A stretch of 34,521 nucleotides of DNA from a virus (Duplodnaviria; Caudoviricetes), in the IMG/VR virus record IMGVR_UViG_3300033485_000053, positions 1-34,521 of that record. The stretch is one strand, 5' to 3'. Shown piece after piece: positions 1-9,746 of this stretch (position 1 is the stretch's first letter; every line of letters begins with the position of its first letter). The position numbers and the translations under genes were made by a program. The notes under the pieces were generated by a model. The model did no database searches and was not told the DNA's origin. It was given only the letters and a program-made list of their open reading frames with translations.

Positions 1-2
1 CA

Positions 3-158
3 GCTACAAACGCCAGCCGGTGCGACCTTTACGCGCCAGGAGAAAAGGTTTGCCTAGATGTGGACGGAGAGAATGGCCCGGCAGATGAAACGAGCGATGA
101 GGAAGCGATTTTGGCAATTTGCGAACATAGCGGAAGAGGCAGGAATGGATGTGTCTAA
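3..158 (+). CDS. Partial hypothetical cassette protein (5' end outside window)
   Basis: Frame 3 is open from the edge (ATNASRCDLY...GRNGCV*). Its TAA lies inside the GTCTAAC core site at 153-159. Confidence 0.5.
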   Translation, partial: ATNASRCDLYAPGEKVCLDVDGENGPADETSDEEAILAICEHSGRGRNGCV

Positions 159-278
159 CGAAAAATTAACCAGCGGTGCGATTGATGCACCTAAACAGGA
201 GAAATAAACATGGACGACACCACTGACGATATAAACAATCCCGCTGGCGCACCGTCTGCGTTGAATGTAGGGTTGGGC
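153..278 (-). repeat. attC-like site 1 (126 bp, long loop)
   Basis: GTCTAAC...TTAAC-CAG-CGGTGCG pairs with CGCACCG-T-CTG-C-GTT-G-AA...GTTGGGC; unpaired T, C and G lie on the + strand right arm. Confidence 0.85.
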
Positions 279-419
279 ATCGGAACCCTATTTGCTCTTT
301 CTGGCTGTTCTGGCGCGACAGGAAACATCACTGCGACCGATCCAACAGAGCGCGGATTATCGTATCTTGCCGCTGCCATTGTCACAGCCGCAGTAATTAA
401 AGCGATATGCAACAAGTGA
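210..419 (+). CDS. Cassette A: small hydrophobic protein, possible lipoprotein
   Basis: AGGAG RBS at 197-201 and ATG 210 are in the attC loop. Lipobox-like LSGC and a hydrophobic C-terminal helix. Confidence 0.6.
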   Translation: MDDTTDDINNPAGAPSALNVGLGIGTLFALSGCSGATGNITATDPTERGLSYLAAAIVTAAVIKAICNK

Positions 420-420
420 T

Positions 421-525
421 GCCCAACGTGGAGGTAAGCCGCAACCAACAGCGGCAACAAAATGATGAATGAAACCACAAACTCAAGCCCGCTGTTGGTT
501 GTCGGACTTGACCGTAAAGTTAGCC
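421..525 (-). repeat. attC-like site 2 (105 bp)
   Basis: GCCCAAC-GTGGA-GGTAAG-CCG-CAACCAACAGCGG pairs with CCGCTGTTGGTTG-T-CGG-A-CTT-G-ACC...GTTAGCC. Confidence 0.9.
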
Positions 526-776
526 CGCCGCCATGCCCATTTTGCGGGAAGCCGGTTGACCTTACCGACGAAGATACGCTCTATCAATCCGGTTCCGGAT
601 GGAAATTCGATGAGGATTTGCAAATGCGAACATATCACCGGATTAACGAAGTGCCAAAGGAGCAATGGTGCTACGGAATGCACTGCCCGGAGCCAGCGGG
701 AGGGTGTGGTGCAGAGATACATGGTGACAGCAAGGATGAGGCGCTAGCGAAGTGGAGCAAGTGGGCTAACGAATGA
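462..776 (+). CDS. Cassette B: Lar-like (restriction alleviation family) zinc-binding protein
   Basis: PCPFCG ... C..GGCGA ... SKDEALAKW pattern typical of Lar-family phage proteins. Starts inside attC 2. Confidence 0.7.
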   Translation: MMNETTNSSPLLVVGLDRKVSPPPCPFCGKPVDLTDEDTLYQSGSGWKFDEDLQMRTYHRINEVPKEQWCYGMHCPEPAGGCGAEIHGDSKDEALAKWSKWANE

Positions 777-828
777 AGCTCAGGGGCGGGCGGCTTCTCG
801 CCCGTCCCGCTGGAGCGACCAGTTAGGC
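764..828 (-). repeat. attC-like site 3 (65 bp)
   Basis: GGCTAAC...GCT-CAG-GGG-CGGGCG pairs with CGCCCG-T-CCC-G-CTG-G-AGC-GACCA-GTTAGGC. Confidence 0.9.
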
Positions 829-856
829 TAGGTTTTTTTGATAAGAGGAGAAAAGC

Positions 857-1123
857 ATGGAATACAAACACGTTTTTACAGGATCGTCAGAAACAGAAGG
901 CGAGCTGCGCACCTTCTTGGGCGCAGCGGAATCACTTGATAGCGGAGTGCCAAGAAAACTGTTTACGAACGACTACTACTGGAAAGTGATGACCGTCGGG
1001 CGTAATGGCGAGAAAGACGCTTATCCGAGGTCGCAGGCCAAGGACGACATGGGCGGATTTTTTGAAGAGCGTGACGGGCTTGTTTATCTGACAGAAAAGG
1101 CGAAGAGCTGCATACATGCCTAA
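857..1123 (+). CDS. Cassette C: hypothetical protein
   Basis: GAGGAG RBS upstream. Stop TAA is inside the GCCTAAC core site. Confidence 0.75.
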   Translation: MEYKHVFTGSSETEGELRTFLGAAESLDSGVPRKLFTNDYYWKVMTVGRNGEKDAYPRSQAKDDMGGFFEERDGLVYLTEKAKSCIHA

Positions 1124-1177
1124 CGCAAAGGTAAGCGGCGGAGCGTAGCGGAGTCCGCCTTGACCGTATGGTTAGGC
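1118..1177 (-). repeat. attC-like site 4 (60 bp)
   Basis: GCCTAAC-GCAAA-GGTAAG-CGG pairs with T-CCG-C-CTT-G-ACC-GTATG-GTTAGGC. Confidence 0.9.
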
Positions 1178-1200
1178 ATTTGACAATAGGAGATGAAAAG

Positions 1201-1377
1201 ATGATAGCAATAGAAACTAGATGCCGTTGCGCAAGATGCAAAAAAATAATAAAAGGAAAGCAAAATATCGCTAATTATGAAAAATATAAGCCATATTGCA
1301 GCTACCACTGCCAACAGTGGCACTGACTGGAAGAAGCGCAAAGGCACATAAAAACATTAGTGCCTAACGTGAAATAG
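1201..1377 (+). pseudogene. Cassette D: small zinc-finger protein with in-frame TGA at 1324-1326
   Basis: AGGAG RBS at 1188-1192. MIAIETRCRCARCKK...KPYCSYHCQQWH*LEEAQRHIKTLVPNVK*; CxxC...PYCSxxC resembles a YacG-like finger. Confidence 0.55.
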
Positions 1378-1470
1378 ATACCCTAAAAACTCCGACTAAT
1401 GCACCTTTATTTTTTGTAGTAGCATGAAAGCAAAGTTAATTTTTTAACTAAAAGCGCAGATTTTTACACC
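1362..1470 (-). repeat. attI-like terminal site, copy 1
   Basis: Core site GCCTAAC without a hairpin partner, then sequence 90/105 identical (ungapped, hand-aligned from the AAC) to 8941-9045. Confidence 0.7.
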
Positions 1471-1698
1471 ATGCCAGAACAAATCTGTGGAACCTGCAAC
1501 CATGCATCATTTGGTAAAACGAATGACTGCACCGCCGCAAGCAATATCTGGGAGCGTGGCAGACACATCGAACCGTGGCTAGTAGAGTGTATGCACAATC
1601 CAGCAAAGTGGGAGCCGATAAATACTCACAAAGACTGGGCATCGAAAGCTGTTAGAATAGAAACTATCAAAAACGCATTGAAGAAAGCCGAAGAATGA
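1471..1698 (+). CDS. Hypothetical Cys-containing phage protein
   Basis: ORF whose stop overlaps the next start (ATGA). No clear RBS; ATG abuts the 105-bp repeat. Confidence 0.55.
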   Translation: MPEQICGTCNHASFGKTNDCTAASNIWERGRHIEPWLVECMHNPAKWEPINTHKDWASKAVRIETIKNALKKAEE

Positions 1699-2114
1699 CA
1701 TCACCATACGCATTTGCAAATAAACAAAAAGCACCTATCCCGTTGGAGCATGATATTCAATGTGCATACTTTGAGTGGGCGCGTAATCCTGCAACGCTGA
1801 AAAAATATCCAAAGATACGCTGGCTGCACGCAATAGCCAATGGCGGGGCGCGTCATGTCGTGGTGGCGGTTAAATTGAAGCGAGAAGGTGTTTTAAAGGG
1901 CATTCTCGATGTTTGTCTGCCATGCTGTAGTGGTGATAAGCATGTTACCTATTCGACGCTCAGAATCGAGTTTAAACGCCCAAAAGAGAAAGAAACGAAA
2001 GAGCAGATCGAATTCGCTGAATTTTGCCGCAACGAAGGGCAGAAATGCGTTGTCTGTTTTGATTCTATCGACGCAATACAGATAACCAAAGATTATTTGG
2101 AGGGTAAATTATGA
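1695..2114 (+). CDS. VRR-NUC family (PD-(D/E)xK) nuclease
   Basis: EHDIQ...HAIANGG.R...LKREGVLKGILD...IEFK....QIEF motifs. Confidence 0.85.
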   Translation: MTSPYAFANKQKAPIPLEHDIQCAYFEWARNPATLKKYPKIRWLHAIANGGARHVVVAVKLKREGVLKGILDVCLPCCSGDKHVTYSTLRIEFKRPKEKETKEQIEFAEFCRNEGQKCVVCFDSIDAIQITKDYLEGKL

Positions 2115-2311
2115 TTGACGATTCTATGATTGCACGATTGCTAGAGCAATGTGATCTGAATGACGCTGTACCTACCGTATATCGTGAAGAGTTAAAACAA
2201 TTCGCCCGTGCTTGCTATGCTGCCGGGCGTGATGATGAAAAATTTGATTCAATTCGTTCTATAGCTAATCTCGCAAAGCAAGGCGAACATCCCCTAATCT
2301 CCAATACCTAG
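2111..2311 (+). CDS. Hypothetical protein
   Basis: ATGA-coupled to the nuclease gene with GAGG RBS. Overlaps the convergent gene at its 3' end. Confidence 0.55.
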   Translation: MIDDSMIARLLEQCDLNDAVPTVYREELKQFARACYAAGRDDEKFDSIRSIANLAKQGEHPLISNT

Positions 2312-2477
2312 TGACCCTCCCGCGAATCTTCACAGGTTGCGGGATTGTTTTATCTGTTATAGCTCTACCTATGAAATATGGCGTATTCTTGATTCCGTAT
2401 ATCTCGACAATCTCTGCACAAGTTAGATATACGCCGTCCTCCCATTTATTCATGCGTGGCGGGATATTCGGAGTCAT
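2265..2477 (-). CDS. AlpA/excisionase-like winged-helix protein
   Basis: YLT.AEI.E.YG...IPQPVKI.GR..R.WRLGDV. ATG 2477 is coupled to the upstream stop. Confidence 0.6.
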   Translation of the reverse strand: MTPNIPPRMNKWEDGVYLTCAEIVEIYGIKNTPYFIGRAITDKTIPQPVKIRGRVTRYWRLGDVRLALRD

Positions 2478-2791
2478 TTCATACGTCCAATTTCTGCTGA
2501 AGCGCAAACTATTGCGCGACGAGTTGCTTCTTCATTTCCGTATCCTATATCTGTTTTTTCTGTAACTGATTCTCCATTGCCGAATTTTACTTCAGTTGCG
2601 TATGCTCGAAAATCTATTCCCAGTCTCAATTTAACTGCCAAACACAAAGCATCACCGTCATCCTCTAACGGGTTCCATATCGCGCCGTTTTCAGTAAAAA
2701 AAGCATTTAATGGATGCTGATTACCGTCTAAGTTTTGTAATATTATCCCTGCTGCCTTCGCCGCTAATTCCAACAATTCTTTATCGTTCAT
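2474..2791 (-). CDS. Conserved phage hypothetical protein
   Basis: MNDKELLELAAKAAG...WNPLEDDGDAL.LAVKL...ATRRAIV pattern; ATGA coupling. Confidence 0.8.
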   Translation of the reverse strand: MNDKELLELAAKAAGIILQNLDGNQHPLNAFFTENGAIWNPLEDDGDALCLAVKLRLGIDFRAYATEVKFGNGESVTEKTDIGYGNEEATRRAIVCASAEIGRMK

Positions 2792-2970
2792 GTCAACCAT
2801 CTCCCAATAATAACCATCCCCGCATAAGCCAATACCCACCATTGCCAGCCTTTTCCTGAATCCATGTCATCAGGCTCATCCAACAATGCGCGATAACCGT
2901 ATGCTTCAGTAAGCGTGCGCGGGAAACGGTTTACGCATAGACCGTATTCTGCGTGTAGATTGTCAGGCAT
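2788..2970 (-). CDS. Small hypothetical membrane protein
   Basis: RFPRTL.EA motif and C-terminal hydrophobic helix; overlaps neighbours in the operon. Confidence 0.6.
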   Translation of the reverse strand: MPDNLHAEYGLCVNRFPRTLTEAYGYRALLDEPDDMDSGKGWQWWVLAYAGMVIIGRWLT

Positions 2971-3229
2971 AAGGATGCTCCGTTTCTTTTTGATTTATGC
3001 TATATTCCGAAATCTGCTCATCTGTCATTTCGTCAGGGCAAAATTCAATCATCAAAGAATCAATCTTTGCTTGTTGAGAATTGCATCTTTTCTCAAACAT
3101 TTCACTTGCTGCAATAGCCATACGCGCCGAGGCTTCAGCATTGCCGAGGTCGTGGCGAAGTGTTGCGATTTCTTTTTTCAATTCAGAGATTTCCTTTTCG
3201 CATTGCTCAACAGCTTGTAATAAGCTCAT
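2963..3229 (-). CDS. Hypothetical coiled-coil phage protein
   Basis: AGGAG RBS; QAKIDSLM.E.CPDEMT.EQ motif recurrent in phage proteins. Confidence 0.75.
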   Translation of the reverse strand: MSLLQAVEQCEKEISELKKEIATLRHDLGNAEASARMAIAASEMFEKRCNSQQAKIDSLMIEFCPDEMTDEQISEYSINQKETEHPYA

Positions 3230-3241
3230 TTTGTAATCTCC

Positions 3242-3526
3242 TTATTCTTGCATAAACATCAAAGAGTCAGGCACAACGAATTCCATCCGTTTATCCTTAT
3301 CCATTGCGCGATATACCAGCAATTTACCGCGAATGCGTTTAAGAAAATCGTTTATTGCTGATTGTGGCGTTGCGCCATTACCATGTGTTGATTCCAAGCA
3401 GGCAGAACCAGCTTTATCCTTGAACTCGCAATTATAGAATGACGCGCTCCAACGGCTTTTCTGGTTAGGGTAATAGATTAAGCGAATTTCGATGTTAAGC
3501 GTATCGCAATAGTCTTGAATGTTCAT
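3242..3526 (-). CDS. Hypothetical protein
   Basis: RBS and ATGA coupling within the leftward operon. Confidence 0.7.
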   Translation of the reverse strand: MNIQDYCDTLNIEIRLIYYPNQKSRWSASFYNCEFKDKAGSACLESTHGNGATPQSAINDFLKRIRGKLLVYRAMDKDKRMEFVVPDSLMFMQE

Positions 3527-3720
3527 TTCATCTCCTTAGTAATATCCAGCGAGGTGCTGGTCAACTGCATATCAAATTCTTCGCAAGCCATTAACTGCCT
3601 AGCCAATACATACAGTGATACAGGGCATCCGGAACGCTCTACCATGCGTCTTGCAGCCTGCCGACCGATACTAGGATATAGACGGGCAGCGCGTAATGCT
3701 ATTTGTGCGTTTGGTGTCAT
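3523..3720 (-). CDS. Hypothetical protein
   Basis: ATGA coupling on both sides. Confidence 0.65.
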   Translation of the reverse strand: MTPNAQIALRAARLYPSIGRQAARRMVERSGCPVSLYVLARQLMACEEFDMQLTSTSLDITKEMK

Positions 3721-4133
3721 TTTTTCCTCATTTCTTCTGCCATAGCAGCAATAGCATCAGCAAGCCATAAACCATCTTCACTTTTGAAAAAAGCGAATTT
3801 ATCCAGTAGTTGTTCAAGAGCATCAGCACTAGCCTGCATACTCGATTCTGCATCGTGCTTGTCGAGCCATTGCTGGATGGATGTGGCAGTGGCGCTGAGT
3901 GCCGCTTCTTGTAAAATAAAAGCGTTCTCGCCCGCCTCCGCGATGCTATCTTGTGCGTCCGGTAAGTGACAATACATATTTGCATATTTTCTGGCGCGCT
4001 CGACTTCATTGATAGCTTCGGCCAGCATCGCGTTGTGTGCAGCAAGCCGCTCGTTCTCGACTTTGAGTTCTGCAACCTCTTCTCGCAGACGCTTGGCTGC
4101 GTCAAGTTCCATTTGCACTAGTAAGCTGGTCAT
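3717..4133 (-). CDS. Hypothetical coiled-coil protein
   Basis: AGGAG RBS and ATGA coupling. Confidence 0.7.
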   Translation of the reverse strand: MTSLLVQMELDAAKRLREEVAELKVENERLAAHNAMLAEAINEVERARKYANMYCHLPDAQDSIAEAGENAFILQEAALSATATSIQQWLDKHDAESSMQASADALEQLLDKFAFFKSEDGLWLADAIAAMAEEMRKK

Positions 4134-4777
4134 TTCTTCTCTCCTATTATTCCGTGGGCGGCTTCTACTGCGCGAGTATAGTCAATCCAATCCTCGGCAT
4201 CCATTTTATAAGAACGCACAGTATTCTGTGCAATTTTTAGTACTACCTCCTCACTCAGCGGCTTCTGCTGTGGGAATGGTTCGGCATACAAAGGCTTTGC
4301 CAGATGCCTAGTGCTGGGCATCAATGATTTTGTATCATAAACAAGATGCCCAGCAACTCCTTGCCAAGCAACTGGCTCCTGCTCCATCAGTTCCTTATCG
4401 CGTTCTTCGCGTCCGGCCTGCTTGCCTCCTTCATAAGCCGCCGCAGTGCTGATTGCGCAGGAATCTACCCCGCGCTGATACTCTGCCGCTTTGATGGCGG
4501 CTAGTTCTTCTTGTCCTTTATCAGACATTTTTAATGTGGGCATAAGATGGCATACTAAAGCCTGCTGCGCTGCTAGTTTATCTTGTGCAATGTATGCCTG
4601 CGTATCTGCCGCAAGTCTCGTGCTAAGCAATTCAGATTCCAGTTCCGTAATCCTCTGTTGGCTTTGTTCGGTGGCCGCTTTCCATACATCGAACTCACTC
4701 CGGCCTGCATCCAGTGCTTTACCTTCGTTTCCCTTCCAAGTCTCAAACGCTTCCCGCATATCAGATTCGTAATTCAT
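4130..4777 (-). CDS. Hypothetical phage protein (starts MNYESD)
   Basis: QEPVAW...PLYA.P motif typical of phage accessory proteins. The longer ORF-track version extends into the IS. Confidence 0.75.
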   Translation of the reverse strand: MNYESDMREAFETWKGNEGKALDAGRSEFDVWKAATEQSQQRITELESELLSTRLAADTQAYIAQDKLAAQQALVCHLMPTLKMSDKGQEELAAIKAAEYQRGVDSCAISTAAAYEGGKQAGREERDKELMEQEPVAWQGVAGHLVYDTKSLMPSTRHLAKPLYAEPFPQQKPLSEEVVLKIAQNTVRSYKMDAEDWIDYTRAVEAAHGIIGEKK

Positions 4778-6085
4778 AAAAGTCTCCGTGATACCCCCGG
4801 CTTTAGCCGTGGGGAGGTAAGGAGACGGTTTTGAAGTTGCATTCCCGTCTCGGTTGACAATCTCACACAAATAATATATCGTGTGTAAATGGATGTCAAG
4901 AAAGCATATAGGTTTAGGTTTTACCCAACGCCAGAGCAAGAGCAAATTCTTGCCAAGACGTTCGGGTGCGCTCGCTTCGCCTATAACCACATGCTGCGGA
5001 TACGCACTGATGCGTGGTACAAAGAACAAAAGCGAGTGGGCTACCACGAGACCTCCGCTTTGTTGACTGAGTTGAAAAAGCAGCCTGAAACAATCTGGAT
5101 GAACGAAGTTTCCAGCGTACCAGTGCAACAGTCTCTGCGACATTTGCAAACCGCATTCGGAAATTTTTTCGCCAAGCGTGCCAAGTATCCGGCCTTCAAA
5201 AGCAAACACGACAAGCAGGCAGCGGAATACACTTCCAGTGCCTTCAAATGGGACGGCAAAGCATTGAAACTGGCAAAGATAGATGCGCCGTTAAATATCC
5301 ACTGGTCGCGCACCTTGCCAAAAGCAGCGAAGCCAACCACAGTCACGGTATCCAAGGACGCAGCAGGACGGTACTTCGCTTCGTTACTTTGCGACGACAC
5401 GGTGATGCCGAAGCCGGAAGCCGCAGGACAGATCGGTATTGACTTAGGGCTTACCCACTTCGCCATACTTTCGACTGGCGAGAAGATTGCAGCACCAAAC
5501 ACGTTCCGCAAGAATGAATCCAAGCTCGCAAAGTTACAGAGGCGACTGGCGAAGAAGCAAAAAGGCTCGGCAAACAGATTCAAGGCCAAGCGCAAAGTAG
5601 CAAGGCTACATGCCAAGACGGCAGATACCCGCAGGGATTTTCTACACAAACTTTCAACCCGGCTGGTCAACGAAAACCAAGTTATCGCCATTGAAAGTCT
5701 CGCCGTCAGCAACATGCAGAAGAACCACTGTTTGGCAAAGTCAATCAGCGATGCTGGCTGGTCAGAGTTTGTCAGGCAGCTCGAATACAAGTCGCTGTGG
5801 TACGGGCGCACCTTGGTCGGCATTGACCGCTGGTATCCATCCAGCAAGCGATGCTCCGACTGTGGGCATACTGTACCAAAAATGCCGTTGAAAGTTCGCG
5901 AGTGGGTATGCCCAGAGTGCGGCAGTATCCATGATCGAGACATCAATGCAGCGCGCAATGTTTTAACCGCTGGGCTTGCGGGGTTAGCCCATGGAGTCGA
6001 AGTAAGTCCTGTCATCATTTGATTGTTGTCGGGCATTTGTCTGTGAAGTGGGAATTCCCTGCCTTTAGGCATGGGGAGCAGTCAA
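4778..6085 (+). mobile_element. IS200/IS605-family element, tnpB only (no tnpA)
   Basis: Left end GATA-CCCCCGGCTTTAGCCGTGGGG (4790-4814). Right end GAAT-TCCCTGCCTTTAGGCATGGGG (6052-6076) ending in TCAA (6082-6085). Inserted 3' of TCAT. Confidence 0.9.
4889..6022 (+). CDS. tnpB: RNA-guided endonuclease TnpB
   Basis: KAYRFRFYPT..Q...L..TFGC.RF N-terminus; RuvC GIDLG, IAIESL and DRDINAARN; CSDC/CPEC zinc finger. Confidence 0.95.
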   Translation: MDVKKAYRFRFYPTPEQEQILAKTFGCARFAYNHMLRIRTDAWYKEQKRVGYHETSALLTELKKQPETIWMNEVSSVPVQQSLRHLQTAFGNFFAKRAKYPAFKSKHDKQAAEYTSSAFKWDGKALKLAKIDAPLNIHWSRTLPKAAKPTTVTVSKDAAGRYFASLLCDDTVMPKPEAAGQIGIDLGLTHFAILSTGEKIAAPNTFRKNESKLAKLQRRLAKKQKGSANRFKAKRKVARLHAKTADTRRDFLHKLSTRLVNENQVIAIESLAVSNMQKNHCLAKSISDAGWSEFVRQLEYKSLWYGRTLVGIDRWYPSSKRCSDCGHTVPKMPLKVREWVCPECGSIHDRDINAARNVLTAGLAGLAHGVEVSPVII

Positions 6086-6105
6086 TTCATATCCTCCGCA
6101 ATAGC
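5950..6105 (+). ncRNA. Predicted TnpB omega/reRNA (5' boundary uncertain), guide from the flank at 6086-~6105
   Basis: Inferred from the established TnpB reRNA layout: tnpB 3' end, right end and 3' flank. Confidence 0.5.
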
Positions 6106-6249
6106 TTTAATAGAAACGGTAATCAACTCACGCTTATCCTGCAACAGCAATATCTGGCTACACGCTACAGCCATTTGCTTATCAATCAGGTCTAAATCGC
6201 TTGCCAATGCTGCGAGTGCAATGGCTTTATCAGATAGGGTAATCATCAT
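6082..6249 (-). CDS. Small hypothetical protein (55 aa)
   Basis: MMITLSDKAIALAALASDL...AEDMN*. ATGA-coupled to the upstream gene; the stop is supplied by the IS end. Confidence 0.65.
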   Translation of the reverse strand: MMITLSDKAIALAALASDLDLIDKQMAVACSQILLLQDKRELITVSIKAIAEDMN

Positions 6250-6674
6250 ATCTCCTTAACAATAACATCATCAGAAGATGCGCCGATAGAACGCATCACA
6301 GTTTCAATCAGCAAATCGCGGCATTCTGGTAGCTTGCCTGCGACATAAACACCGGACTTGCTCGACTTCCATCCTATTGCACCAGCTGCAATATGGCTTA
6401 TATCCACAATCTCGCCATCCTCTACAACATACAATCCGATGATGCAAGACATTGAACTACGGCTTACATGGCGGATGCAGGTGTAAATCTTCCCAGCAAT
6501 TCCATATCCTCTACCCGCCGGAAGAATCAAGCCATCCAAGTCATCAATACACTGCAAACGATATGCTTCGCGTCCTTTAACGAATGGCAGCTTAATCCAA
6601 TCATCAGATGGTGCGCGTCCATCTAGTTGATAGATTCGTCCGTTTGGGGCGCGGTGGTAAGTATATGAAGTCAT
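6246..6674 (-). CDS. Hypothetical protein
   Basis: 142-aa ORF, ATGA-coupled on both sides. Confidence 0.7.
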   Translation of the reverse strand: MTSYTYHRAPNGRIYQLDGRAPSDDWIKLPFVKGREAYRLQCIDDLDGLILPAGRGYGIAGKIYTCIRHVSRSSMSCIIGLYVVEDGEIVDISHIAAGAIGWKSSKSGVYVAGKLPECRDLLIETVMRSIGASSDDVIVKEI

Positions 6675-7318
6675 TTGTTAGCTTTCTTAGCCGCAATGCG
6701 TTGTTGGTGTCCTAATGACAAGCTAAGAACCATGCCTCGCCATTCATTCCACCATTTCAATGCGCCAGAATCCATTTGTGATATTTCATCATCGGTAAAG
6801 TTTTCCCATTGAGCATGAGAAAATAGCTTGCATCCGATTTTGATGTGCATATCCATAATCAGGACGAAATACTTAGTCCCGATGAGTTGGATAGGTTCGT
6901 TTTCTAGCGGGATACCTTCTCCGTATGTAGCCCCGACCAGATTCGCCCCGTCCAGATTCGCCCCGCGCAGATTCGCCCCGCGCAGATACGCCCCGACCAG
7001 ATACGCCCCGCGCAGATACGCCCCGACCAGATACGCCCCGTCCAGATTCGCCCCGACCAGATACGCCCCGTCCAGATTCGCCCCGACCAGATTCGCCCCG
7101 TCCAGATTCGCCCCGTCCAGATTCGCCCCGACCAGATTCGCCCCGTCCAGATTCGCCCCGCGCAGATTCGCCCCGCGCAGATACGCCCCGACCAGATTCG
7201 CCCCGCGCAGATTCGCCCCAGCACTAAAAGCGGCTTCTACGCATATTTTCATACTTGCGCATTCAAGCGAAAAGATTACAGAGCCAGTAAAGCGGTTTTT
7301 GATTTCAAATAAAGACAT
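6671..7318 (-). CDS. Pentapeptide-repeat protein
   Basis: 19 x GA(N/Y)L(R/V/D), framed by FEIKNRFTG and IKIGC...W..F domains. GGAG 7 nt before ATG 7318. Confidence 0.9.
   Translation of the reverse strand: MSLFEIKNRFTGSVIFSLECASMKICVEAAFSAGANLRGANLVGAYLRGANLRGANLDGANLVGANLDGANLDGANLVGANLDGAYLVGANLDGAYLVGAYLRGAYLVGAYLRGANLRGANLDGANLVGATYGEGIPLENEPIQLIGTKYFVLIMDMHIKIGCKLFSHAQWENFTDDEISQMDSGALKWWNEWRGMVLSLSLGHQQRIAAKKANK
6930..7219. repeat. 15-bp coding tandem repeat, ~19 copies
   Basis: GCCCCG(AC/TC/CG)CAGAT(T/A)C units. Confidence 0.95.
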
Positions 7319-7640
7319 TTTCATTCTCCAAAGTTAAGTTAGTAACGAGTGCCGCGATGTACGGTTACAACAGATTCTGTAGTTTCGCGCAGAATCCGAG
7401 CCGCAGACTTGATGCGTTTCCAATAAGCGCATCGTTTGACGCGCCGAAGTGTGCGCCAGTGGGTAAGTGTGGTGTGAGTGATGCTCATGGCTGCGCGTAT
7501 CATGCTGTCACCTCATTATGTTGTATTGCTGTTGACCAAAGCTCTATTTGTGTCATTGGAACGCCGACGAACTGAGCGCGCAGACGAGCAAAGGTAAGGG
7601 AGAATTCTGCTAGTTCTAGGAAATATGTGCGGGTCATGGC

Positions 7641-7910
7641 TTATTTACCAAGCCATTCTTGCGATTCTTTTTTCATGCCGTCAAGATTTCTAGCAAGCAT
7701 CGCGGCAAAACTGACGAAATAACCAGATTGTGTATTTGTGCTTGCCATATCGGCAGCCCAACGCATATTTTTAGAACGGAGCTGTTGTTCAGCTTGTTCT
7801 GGTGTGAATTTAAGCTCTAAAAGCAACGCGGCGCAGTTTATCCATTGTGAACCATATCTGCTTGAGCTAAATGCATCAGATGTTTTTTTTGCTAATTGTT
7901 TTGCATTCAT
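7641..7910 (-). CDS. Hypothetical protein, first gene of the leftward operon
   Basis: AAGGAG RBS, downstream of the leftward promoter. Confidence 0.75.
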   Translation of the reverse strand: MNAKQLAKKTSDAFSSSRYGSQWINCAALLLELKFTPEQAEQQLRSKNMRWAADMASTNTQSGYFVSFAAMLARNLDGMKKESQEWLGK

Positions 7911-8040
7911 TTTGTAAATCTCCTTTAAGTGTTTAGGTCTATTAGCTGACCGATTAGCTTTGTTGGAAAGGCTGCTAGTTCCTCATTTACCCTCATTTAA
8001 CAGCGAGCCTCACTATCGCCGCACCTAACCAACAGTTCGC

Positions 8041-8069
8041 ATACTATAGATACGATTCAACCTTGTCAA
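8041..8069 (-). promoter_or_regulatory. Sigma70-type leftward promoter
   Basis: TTGACA-17 bp-TAGTAT on the minus strand. Confidence 0.7.
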
Positions 8070-8115
8070 GCATTTTGTGCGCGCAGATTAAAAATATATG
8101 TGATGCGGAAATATG

Positions 8116-8144
8116 TTTACTTTTTGGAGTTGTGCGCGTACAAT
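8116..8144 (+). promoter_or_regulatory. Sigma70-type rightward promoter reading into array 2
   Basis: TTTACT-17 bp-TACAAT immediately before the attC half-site. Confidence 0.55.
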
Positions 8145-8168
8145 TCAGTCTTGAATGCCGTGTTAGGC
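8145..8168 (-). repeat. attC half-site (one arm only)
   Basis: T-CAG-T-CTT-G-AAT-GCCGT-GTTAGGC has the same spacing as the other right arms. No complementary arm seen upstream. Confidence 0.65.
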
Positions 8169-8195
8169 ATTTTAACAACGAAGCGGAGTAAGAAA

Positions 8196-8420
8196 ATGAA
8201 AAAGCCATACCCATCACTGTGCAAAGACTGCAAACACAGCAAGACAGAAGAACGTAGCGAGTGGAACTTGAGATGTCACCATCCAGTTGTAAATGCAAAA
8301 GACCCGTGGGCGCTTGCAAGCATCAATGCGGGTGGAAGTAATTGCTCCACCGTGCGAGAAAAGCACTGGCCTGCGGCTTGTGGAATGCGCGGCGCACTTT
8401 GGGATGGGAAGAGTGTCTAA
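8196..8420 (+). CDS. Cassette E: Cys-rich hypothetical protein
   Basis: GGAG RBS at 8185-8188; LCKDCKH...C.HP...C...R......CG..G.LW; TAA inside GTCTAAC. Confidence 0.75.
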   Translation: MKKPYPSLCKDCKHSKTEERSEWNLRCHHPVVNAKDPWALASINAGGSNCSTVREKHWPAACGMRGALWDGKSV

Positions 8421-8477
8421 CGCAAAGTTAACCGGCTCCGCGCTTTTGCGGAGTCCGGGTTGAACGGCGGGTTAGCC
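8415..8477 (-). repeat. attC-like site 5 (63 bp)
   Basis: GTCTAAC-GCAAA-GTT-AAC-CGG-CTCCGC pairs with GCGGAG-T-CCG-G-GTT-G-AAC-GGCGG-GTTAGCC. Confidence 0.9.
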
Positions 8478-8705
8478 ACTACGCCAAGAGTGCTAGGGCA
8501 TTCCAGAGATTGCAGAACGCAACAGTGGATGATTACATGCCCCAAATGCGCCAAGCAATTCGAGCCGCAAACAACGCGACTTTCATGGCAGTCAATGGAT
8601 TGTCCGAAGTGCGGAACATCTTTGATCGCCGATTACAATGCGGAGCCACCAACTGTGAGGGTGGCTAACGTGGAGTTGAGCGGGCGCGCTGAGAACGCAA
8701 TTTAA
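8460..8705 (+). CDS. Cassette F: zinc-ribbon protein
   Basis: Two CPKC motifs. Probable TTG start with GGAG (8450-8453) inside the attC arm. Confidence 0.65.
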   Translation: MNGGLATTPRVLGHSRDCRTQQWMITCPKCAKQFEPQTTRLSWQSMDCPKCGTSLIADYNAEPPTVRVANVELSGRAENAI

Positions 8706-8747
8706 TCAACCACGCTTCGGGCGCTCCGCTCGAACGGAAAGTTAGGA
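8663..8747 (-). repeat. attC-like site 6 (85 bp)
   Basis: GGCTAAC-GTGGA-GTT-GAG-CGG-GCGC pairs with GCGC-T-CCG-CTC-G-AAC-GGAAA-GTTAGGA. Confidence 0.9.
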
Positions 8748-8754
8748 ACTTACC

Positions 8755-8952
8755 ATGAAACAGAAAAAGATAGAACTTCTTGTAACCTATAAATTTAAGG
8801 TTAGTTATGAGCACGCAGACCACCTACGAGAGATAAAAAAAGAACTCAAGAAACACCCGATAACCAACATGGATGGAGCAGGAGTAGCAAGCGATGGGGT
8901 TGTCTATGGATACTCATGCAAACTTATTAAGGCGTTTCCTAACGTGAAATAG
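8755..8952 (+). CDS. Cassette G: hypothetical protein
   Basis: The AGGA of the core site could act as RBS. Ends PNVK* in the attI-like site, like cassette D. Confidence 0.7.
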   Translation: MKQKKIELLVTYKFKVSYEHADHLREIKKELKKHPITNMDGAGVASDGVVYGYSCKLIKAFPNVK

Positions 8953-9045
8953 GCACCCTAAAAACCCCAACAAATACACCATAATTTTTTTTAGCCACAT
9001 GAAAATAAAGTTAAGTTTTTAACTAAAAGCGCAGATTTTTACACC
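8937..9045 (-). repeat. attI-like terminal site, copy 2
   Basis: Direct repeat of 1362-1470; the last 30 bp are identical. Confidence 0.7.
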
Positions 9046-9058
9046 AAAAGGAACTGAT

Positions 9059-9283
9059 ATGGAAGAGAAGACACCAAAGAAACGCGGACGCAAGACAATC
9101 TCGAAGGATGGCGCAAAGATGCTTAACCGTAACTTCAGGACTACGGATGCAGAATGGGAATCGTGCCTATTGTTTGGCGGCGGAAAGTGGATTAGATCGC
9201 AGATTCATCGGAAGATTAGGCTGGATGCTCAGAAAAAGGTTGATGAAATGTGCGCACCAGTTTTGGCAGAAACGGAGAAATAA
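9059..9283 (+). CDS. Small putative DNA-binding protein (ribbon-helix-helix-like)
   Basis: KKRGRK basic N-terminus; RNFRTTDAEW...GG.KWIR; AAGGA RBS. Confidence 0.6.
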   Translation: MEEKTPKKRGRKTISKDGAKMLNRNFRTTDAEWESCLLFGGGKWIRSQIHRKIRLDAQKKVDEMCAPVLAETEK

Positions 9284-9284
9284 C

Positions 9285-9446
9285 ATGGAACAGAAATTAA
9301 AAATAACGCGTAATAAAATAAAAGAAAAGCTACAGGAAGGACTAGATGTGAACAACTGGTCTATTGTTGGAACAAGAGGATCAAACGCAGCATTTTTGAA
9401 GCTTCTTATTGAATATCTTAAGAGCAAAGGAATTGAAGTGCATTGA
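9285..9446 (+). CDS. Hypothetical protein
   Basis: GGAG RBS; follows the previous stop directly. Confidence 0.6.
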   Translation: MEQKLKITRNKIKEKLQEGLDVNNWSIVGTRGSNAAFLKLLIEYLKSKGIEVH

Positions 9447-9452
9447 CAGTAG

Positions 9453-9746
9453 ATGACATCAATCGTGGATAATATAGTTGACCTGCACGCAGCAAGAAAA
9501 GAGCGCGAGCCGCACAGCACAGGTGAAGCTAGATGCTTGTCTTGTAACCACGAATGGATAGCGGTAGCACCTACTGGCACAGTTTGGCTAGAATGTCCTG
9601 AATGCTCGATTGAAAAAGGCAGATTCGTCGCGCATCACGAAAGAAGTGGCGACCATTGGGAATGTGATTGTGGGTGTGACTTGTTCTACATAACACCGGA
9701 CGGAATGTATTGTCCTAATTGCGGAGATTGGCAGCATGGATTCTGA
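9453..9746 (+). CDS. Zinc-binding hypothetical protein
   Basis: CLSC, CPEC, CDCG and CPNC motifs. Confidence 0.75.
   Translation: MTSIVDNIVDLHAARKEREPHSTGEARCLSCNHEWIAVAPTGTVWLECPECSIEKGRFVAHHERSGDHWECDCGCDLFYITPDGMYCPNCGDWQHGF

Follow-up and report, generated by a model that had tools for sequence, protein, structure and literature searches.

Two predicted arrays of inverted integron cassettes, each ending in an attI-like site, in a tailed-phage genome

The window analysed here is a record of 34,521 nucleotides from a virus of the Caudoviricetes (IMG/VR IMGVR_UViG_3300033485_000053, positions 1 to 34,521); it carries terminase, a P22-like portal region and coat genes, and its completeness is 83%. 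It contains two arrays of attC sites, the recombination sites of integron cassettes, in which the genes are predicted to lie on the bottom strand of the sites and which each end in a sequence close to an attI site. The reading that we favour, with a probability of roughly 0.75, is that the chromosomal integron integrase (IntI) of the host excises and inserts these cassettes in trans. Judged by sequence comparison, the arrays appear to be a real and widespread variant of integron cassette arrays, namely a CALIN (attC sites clustered together with no integron integrase) with an attI, which is neither a complete integron nor a set of canonical cassettes.

Array 1 occupies positions 1–1405, truncated by the start of the contig, and holds four attC sites; array 2 occupies positions 8149–8980 and holds two attC sites and a half site. 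Both are attC clusters with no IntI gene adjoining. The preliminary description of the window had given a single range, 153–8952; there are instead two arrays about 6.7 kb apart, separated by ordinary phage genes that lie for the most part on the minus strand.

Polarity of the sites and coding strand of the cassette genes

The sites have the anatomy of attC, an imperfect palindrome of the order R''-L''-loop-L'-R' with one extra base in L''. The extra base had been placed on the right arm of the + strand, and this holds for all five sites scored (the site at 764, which has a 7-nt spacer, escaped scoring and was recovered by a structural detector); the canonical top strand of the six full sites and of the half site is the minus strand. 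The structural detector found five of the six full sites, all with minus as the top strand, missed the site at 1118, and returned 0.02 hits per shuffled window (100 shuffles). At each of 74 host sites, in 11 regions adjoining intI, the rule that reads polarity from the bulge agrees with the layout around intI. A sequence profile built from 39 host attC sites, oriented by the position of intI rather than by the bulge, gave nine matches in the window, all on the minus strand: eight are array sites, four of them with E ≤ 2e-6, and the ninth is a chance match (E 0.8).

A canonical cassette carries a top-strand gene ending at its own attC; here, all seven complete cassette genes lie on the bottom strand. 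That the real cassette genes are those on the + strand, as had been proposed, is borne out by homologues of four of them: the Lar-like gene 462–776 has 124 (counting itself), gene 8460–8705 has three, gene 8755–8952 has four other than itself, and gene 210–419 differs from its copy in another array (locus L012) by nine synonymous and four non-synonymous codon changes. For the genes at 857, 1201 and 8196, the strand call is based solely on the Shine–Dalgarno (SD) sequence, the ATG and position. Conservation of the minus-strand open reading frames (ORFs) had been named as grounds for rejecting this assignment; none of the seven matches a PHROG, and the best Pfam match, for one ORF, is sub-threshold (E 0.011).

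Inverted cassettes in phages and bacteria

The viral survey comprised three pattern scans of viral contigs, with at least 372 loci, and the genome survey one scan, with 170 loci; the strand of the cassette genes was scored with a codon and SD model. Among the viral matches listed (271 cassettes at 113 loci), 241 cassettes are inverted, 17 canonical and 13 ambiguous, in keeping with the distinct inverted class that had been proposed. By locus, 97 of the 113 are purely inverted, 12 purely canonical and one mixed. The bacterial genomes yielded 150 canonical, 23 inverted and 26 ambiguous cassettes (199 at 61 loci), and six of the 23 inverted ones sit in two prophage-like loci.

In a sample taking every other viral cassette from the first scan, PHROG matches were found for 15 of 64 bottom-strand ORFs versus none of 64 top-strand ORFs; the matched bottom-strand ORFs include six DNA methyltransferases and two HNH genes. 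A codon check of the frames, suggested beforehand, gave a result in favour of the bottom strand: across 20 homologous pairs, the synonymous share of changed codons is 63% in the bottom-strand frame, 50% in its mirror and 7–10% in the other four.

It is very improbable that the polarity is an artefact, either because site orientation is miscalled or because the minus-strand ORFs are the genes. The strand scorer was wrong on at least one cassette (L733:7580), and the 13 viral and 26 genomic calls given above are ambiguous; however, family matches fall on the bottom strand only, the intI-oriented profile is minus throughout, the bulge rule agrees at 74/74 sites, and the Lar homologues and the codon-change pattern point the same way. 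Two other candidate indicators were rejected: purine skew as a guide to polarity (its top-strand value is negative in either set) and counts of stops in the core (R') as a guide to strand (237/451 versus 199/450).

Phage arrays of canonical polarity were seen in G042, L421, L422, L558, L571 and TJE1; the array of G042 is headed by an attI-like site whose form is that of the terminal motif described below, and L558 carries RtcB as a cassette. In one phage array, a canonical cassette with a trypsin-like peptidase (PF13365; L442:3302–3985) lies among ten inverted ones and is a candidate for a captured host cassette lying antisense. Comparison of 244 viral with 150 chromosomal genes, a small sample, revealed no cross-pool protein homology.

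The mobile unit and the crossover point

Comparison of natural breakpoints places the crossover at AA|C of the R' box, on the bottom strand. The window cassette 153–419 recurs at L012 at 82% identity with different neighbours; the homology is bounded by the AA|C of the R' boxes, and the copy preserves the SD, the loop ATG and the frame despite indels. Junctions at AA|C are displayed by 13 near-identical pairs. Loci L413 and L440 are 99.8% alike up to AAC and then differ by one cassette, the ends of which share about 9 nt. The two loci also have one gene body in common whose 5' parts differ; the joint is a CAAC that lies outside any attC, and is possibly a secondary-site junction.

Whether sites travel with their upstream or their downstream gene was assessed with pairs, not independent of each other, among 516 unique viral sites. 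The 103 pairs that share only the downstream gene have a mean site identity of 0.67, with 18 at ≥ 0.8; the 59 that share only the upstream gene have a mean of 0.57, with none at ≥ 0.8; random site pairs have a mean of 0.56, with 4/400 at ≥ 0.8. No pair shares both flanks, a count that omits identical copies, which were merged beforehand. The difference between 18/103 and 0/59, together with the breakpoints at R' AA|C, supports the earlier assignment of each attC to its downstream gene. Because the breakpoints lie in R' and the sites follow the downstream gene, the mRNA-sense strand appears to behave as the recombining bottom strand, in line with the preliminary description. The mRNA strand of a site in a Rhodanobacter prophage is identical at 55 of 60 nt (by eye) to the bottom strand of attCaadA7 as listed by Qi et al. 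2023 (PMC9892861).

We consider it quite unlikely that the sites are relics from a host integron, with gene exchange now proceeding between similar repeats through homologous or single-strand-annealing recombination rather than through IntI. The difference between loci L390 and L405 lies between two near-identical sites, where homologous recombination could explain it; right-arm homology could also yield the long sites on unrelated gene bodies, with junctions near R'', that are described below, and the window has one half site and one premature stop. Exchange between repeats is harder to reconcile with AA|C junctions that share fewer than 10 nt, with sites that follow the downstream gene only and retain bulge, boxes and attI, and with a phage cassette found in register within a host array.

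The terminal site and the likely host

Each array closes in a lone attI-like site, a feature missing from the preliminary description. A 109-nt repeat closes each array; the two copies are 86% alike and open with an R box that has no hairpin partner. Among the 3' tails of 49 arrays, 23 have the terminal form RYYYAAC-N6/7-TAGRC, although one or two of them may be missed attC arms; the form occurs at 3 of 48 heads, and 0.045 is expected by chance. Sequence match and position identify the element as an attI at the head of the array; its function is putative.

The terminal motif matches the attI of a metagenome-assembled genome labelled Gallionellaceae. Among 30 intI loci of this family, the motif lies 137–173 nt ahead of intI in 16 and 662 nt ahead in one, and was found in none of the other 13. 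The best attI match to the window is 20/23 nt, in three loci, compared with ≤ 18 in 80 mixed loci including two from Gallionellaceae; homology between the window's terminal site and the host attI spans about 40 nt. In Rhodanobacter caeni, the terminal site of a prophage array and the attI of the same genome share 12 consecutive nt; with the Gallionellaceae match, this makes two cases in which terminal sites follow the host. A Lar homologue at 82% is labelled as coming from Ca. Ferrigenium. The host of the phage is likely to be a Gallionellaceae bacterium, as far as these matches can indicate.

Beyond the attI match, the repeat (1405–1471 and 8980–9046) is conserved between the arrays, is unlike host sequence and contains A/T tracts, which suggest a protein-binding or bending element. 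Five loci in host-family genomes (L687, L688, L689, L694 and L695) have attI-like sites and canonical cassettes with no intI within 1.5 kb on either side.

Source of the recombinase

A TIGR02249 search, in which a class 1 control scored, found IntI in none of 27 array-bearing phage records, that of the window included. There is no recombinase ORF beside either terminal site, where a complete integron would have intI adjoining attI, and no small tyrosine recombinase beside an array in the window, the record being 83% complete. PF00589 is present in 7 of the records with inverted arrays (n = 40) and in 3 of the near-complete records (n = 22), and those inspected look like prophage integrases; no gene family is common to the array phages, none occurring in more than 8 of 19. 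IntI is present in 116 of 201 host-family genomes.

Exchange with host integrons is indicated by the long site at 421, which is found inside two host chromosomal arrays. In one of them (G085), a copy heads a gene of phrog_625 (E 2e-18) that is antisense to the canonical cassettes around it; the match to the family starts at residue 22, directly past the site-encoded part. Host-family integron arrays otherwise hold canonical cassettes for the most part (46 canonical, 3 inverted and 5 ambiguous of 54), as do 20 host regions chosen independently of a match to the window (33 canonical, 1 weakly inverted and 2 ambiguous of 36). Two more inverted cassettes, with weak AlaRS-fragment-like and endonuclease-like matches, occur in a host chromosomal array (L732:10199–11427) beside one headed by the window's long site. 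Host IntI acting in trans is the simplest reading of these findings, and a likely one.

With cassettes and polarity unchanged, the shuffling enzyme could instead be a recombinase of the phage itself, either IntI or a small Xer-type one, encoded outside the sequenced part of the genome, or could come from a helper phage. The incomplete record leaves room for this, and the tyrosine recombinases of the 7/40 inverted-array records lie in some cases ≤ 2 kb from the attI end. We nevertheless regard it as unlikely: both attI ends lie within the window with no recombinase adjoining, 19 of 22 near-complete records are without PF00589 and none has IntI, no family is shared, and terminal sites track the host attI in two host groups.

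Besides the non-independence of the site pairs, the merging of identical copies and the L390/L405 difference given above, several points weigh against host-driven shuffling of inverted cassettes. A stricter two-sided co-travel test had 7 pairs only (5 versus 2, p 0.45). The survey patterns are biased to proteobacterial-type sites. Inversion is not required of a phage array, since 12 of the 113 viral loci are canonical, as are TJE1 (L302) and an array of G042 (L649:3240–4200). One mixed locus among the 113 listed lends little support to the silent capture of cassettes from the host. The short sites of the window are no closer to those of the host family than to those of other taxa (0.76 versus 0.80 and 0.88 versus 0.88), and no close prophage relative was found by coat protein in 251 host-family genomes, the best match being 35%. 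The part of the record that is missing could encode a phage recombinase. Finally, the promoter-like site just ahead of array 2 (8116–8144, +, 9/12), a candidate driver of the + transcript, is by itself not above chance level.

Starts within the sites and portability of long sites

Several details of the starts were present as first described: ATG 210 with AGGAG, TTG 8460 with GGAG, and three N-termini encoded by attC arms. Others were described in part correctly. ATG 462 does lie in a loop, with no SD match; and a start inside the attC, which had been proposed for the cassette genes, applies to three of the seven complete ones, the other four starting past the site. The start at 8755 is the same Met in all four homologues; AGGA of the core site is a candidate ribosome-binding site for this gene, and a core AGGA usable in this way is rare elsewhere (3/213). 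For gene 8460, the conserved part begins directly after R'', ahead of the next ATG. One of its homologues has an N-terminus from a long site, and the start of another lies shortly before the conserved block and upstream of the next ATG in the window, which makes the TTG start at 8460 plausible.

In long sites, defined as those of 95 nt or more, the loop contains an SD and ATG on the bottom strand in 48 of 85 cases and on the top strand in three; 43 of these loop frames remain open for 30 codons beyond the site. At short sites (n = 339), an SD and ATG lie just past the site on the bottom strand in 201 and on the top strand in 15. The idea that the site doubles as a translation-initiation module would hold, then, for long sites (48/85) and not for most short ones, the genes of which have their own SD and ATG past the site (201/339). 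Of 64 frames read through R'', 33 and 31 use the two that avoid its TAG; the TAG-reading frame is never used, which is partly forced by the open-frame filter.

Among Lar homologues, 67 of 118 have short native starts (≤ 10 residues) and the others are extended; about 29 of the extensions (by eye) end in arm-encoded peptides. Similar long-site pairs (≥ 0.80 identity, n = 42) head unrelated bodies in 37 cases, the break falling at or just past R'' (the cut-off for unrelated bodies, 0.65, is near the background of 0.6). From these 37 pairs, the long site appears to be portable among gene bodies, a process slower than the shuffling of cassettes.

Relation to known systems

Phage attC clusters are already published. 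In Qi et al. 2023 (PMC9892861), 17 phage CALINs are described, attC clusters without IntI and with methyltransferase cargo, and five phage sites recombined with attI1 via the bottom strand. The lack of IntI and the methyltransferase cargo are shared with the phage arrays surveyed here, and their TJE1 is canonical; the text is silent on the polarity of genes relative to sites, on attI in the CALINs of virulent phages and on starts inside sites, although its figures may show polarity. On inspection here, two of its examples proved inverted: MW202573 at 2 detected sites and P12002L at attC1. A literature search, outside the scope of which lay subscription journals, figures and bioRxiv supplements, found no published account of inverted phage cassettes.

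The sedentary chromosomal integrons of Gallionellaceae resemble the window's arrays in site anatomy, in attI (20/23 nt) and in one shared long site, and differ in that intI adjoins attI and the genes occupy the top strand. Translation is aided by ORF-11 in attI1 and by small ORFs within attC, according to two reports (PMC8876359, PMC11511950), and there too the recombination site provides SD and start signals; in those systems, however, a separate leader peptide aids the next cassette, whereas in the window the site encodes the N-terminus of its own gene and moves along with it. Two side reactions of IntI described in PMC5027507 and 10.1101/2022.09.11.507474, top-strand (R'') recombination and the use of attG secondary sites, could link a site at R'' to new DNA. 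Top-strand recombination flips site and gene together, whereas in the window the gene is flipped against its own site and the sites are in canonical register with attI. Strand selectivity and the loss of expression from the cassette promoter Pc upon inversion are also treated in PMC5027507.

Proposed mechanism

As the natural breakpoints show, a cassette is bounded by the AA|C of two successive R' boxes and comprises the hairpin followed by the downstream gene. In the proposed mechanism, new cassettes would enter at the attI-like site, that is, at the 3' end of the transcribed array. The genes of the window read toward attI, and a scan of 7800–9300, covering array 2, found no Pc that reads into the cassettes: the sole minus-strand promoter-like site lies beyond the array and faces away from it (8041–8069, −, 10/12, chance level for the region). 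Expression would presumably come from phage operon promoters and, with the arrays inside phage operons, an inverted cassette would be transcribed wherever it is inserted. By the same geometry, an ordinary host cassette would land antisense in a phage array and be silent, and a phage cassette in a host integron would lie antisense to Pc. In the sequence, a short site is followed by the gene's own SD and ATG; in a long site, the SD and ATG lie in the loop, from which translation would start, and the right arm encodes the first 17–26 residues, in either frame avoiding the TAG of R''. Joining at R'' may be a route to new cassettes.

A broader and tentative reading, to which we would give clearly less than an even chance, is that of a mirror-image integron. 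Phages would make cassettes using the host enzyme, the long attC would act as a movable start module, fused at R'' by IntI to gene bodies that have no start, each phage would carry an attI matched to its host, and the reversed polarity would silence cassettes crossing in both directions, host defence cassettes included. Against its silencing step alone stands a non-adaptive account, compatible with the host enzyme, which falls only a little short of an even chance: the polarity is real and arises because cassettes form in phage operons, IntI targeting TAA-C at coding-strand gene ends. Insertion by IntI at short GWT secondary sites, described in 10.1101/2022.09.11.507474, speaks for it, as do the several window genes that stop in an R' box and the existence of canonical phage arrays. 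Yet the frequency of stops in R' fails to separate the strands (237/451 versus 199/450), and this account by itself leaves unexplained why 97 loci are purely inverted and one is mixed.

If phages do shuffle methyltransferase, Lar-like and other small genes by means of the host enzyme and a host-matched attI, the integron would serve phage and host alike in their conflict; anti-phage cassettes are stored in chromosomal integrons, as 10.1101/2024.07.02.601686 reports. The hosts of uncultured phages could also be predicted from the terminal site, and gene callers would mis-set the starts of such genes, since the start lies inside the site. The first making of cassettes is, to our knowledge, a long-open question, and identical long sites fused at R'' to different gene bodies would offer a concrete, assayable step in it.

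Features of the two arrays

Array 1 runs off the contig, and its first element is the 3' portion of a cassette gene truncated there (3–158, +), which stops at the TAA in the R' box of the next site. That site is a long attC of 126 nt (153–278; top strand minus, as for all sites below) with AGGAG and ATG 210 in its loop, and the gene that starts there (210–419, +, 69 aa) is the one whose cassette recurs in L012 with different neighbours. An ORF of 17 codons (419–472, +) crosses the left arm of the following long attC (421–525, −, 105 nt); its ATG overlaps the upstream TGA and its end adjoins ATG 462/465, an overlap geometry that makes translational coupling possible. Copies of site 421 at 95% and 81% head other gene bodies in two chromosomal integrons of the host family. 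The Lar-like gene (restriction alleviation family; 462–776, +) has an N-terminal extension encoded by this attC and is followed by a short attC of 65 nt with the 7-nt spacer (764–828, −). A cassette gene of 88 aa (857–1123, +), with no family match, has its own SD (GAGGAG) past the site and stops in the R' box of the next, a short attC of 60 nt (1118–1177, −). The last gene is Cys-rich (1201–1326, +), with its own SD (AGGAG) and a TGA at 1324. Past that TGA, the frame stays open until TAG 1375–1377 inside the terminal site, 17 codons on; the last gene of array 2 stops at the TAG of its own terminal site, and for array 1 a recent nonsense change or read-through is possible. The attI-like terminal site (1362–1405, −) has an R box and an L box, no hairpin partner, and opens the 109-nt repeat 1363–1471.

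Array 2 begins with a half attC (8149–8168, −) that has L'' and R'' only, the right arm. The pairing of a half site and a promoter at the array head is not a general pattern (0/48 heads). A Cys-rich cassette gene of 74 aa (8196–8420, +) has its own SD (GGAG) and stops in the R' box of a short attC of 63 nt (8415–8477, −). The double zinc-ribbon gene (8460–8705, +) has its TTG start in the L'' of that site and runs into the next attC (8663–8747, −, 85 nt). The last cassette gene (8755–8952, +, 65 aa), whose four homologues have the same start, stops at a TAG inside the terminal site. This attI-like site (8937–8980, −) is the one identical at 20/23 nt to three chromosomal attI of the Gallionellaceae family, and opens the 109-nt repeat 8938–9046.

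Other observations

A blastn search with both arrays against 50,697 GenBank phages gave no match, an exact search of viral contigs for the window's terminal repeat returned 0, no LexA box lies near the arrays, and Rfam has no match in window 1–9500. In the flanks examined of 80 terminase relatives, attC was undetected, so the arrays are patchy in the phage group. Contigs of one DNA run, which may be the source, gave a single joint at a site (523 -> 1121), with just 21 nt on one side, an overlap too short to be relied on. Between the arrays, a 377-aa ORF on the + strand (4889–6022), inserted amid minus-strand phage genes, resembles an IS200/IS605 TnpB, and a pentapeptide-repeat-like gene (6671–7324, −) has about 19 tandem units of 15 nt. 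Several other phages also carry two arrays (G002, G016, G027 and G042), which lie on opposite strands in three of them.

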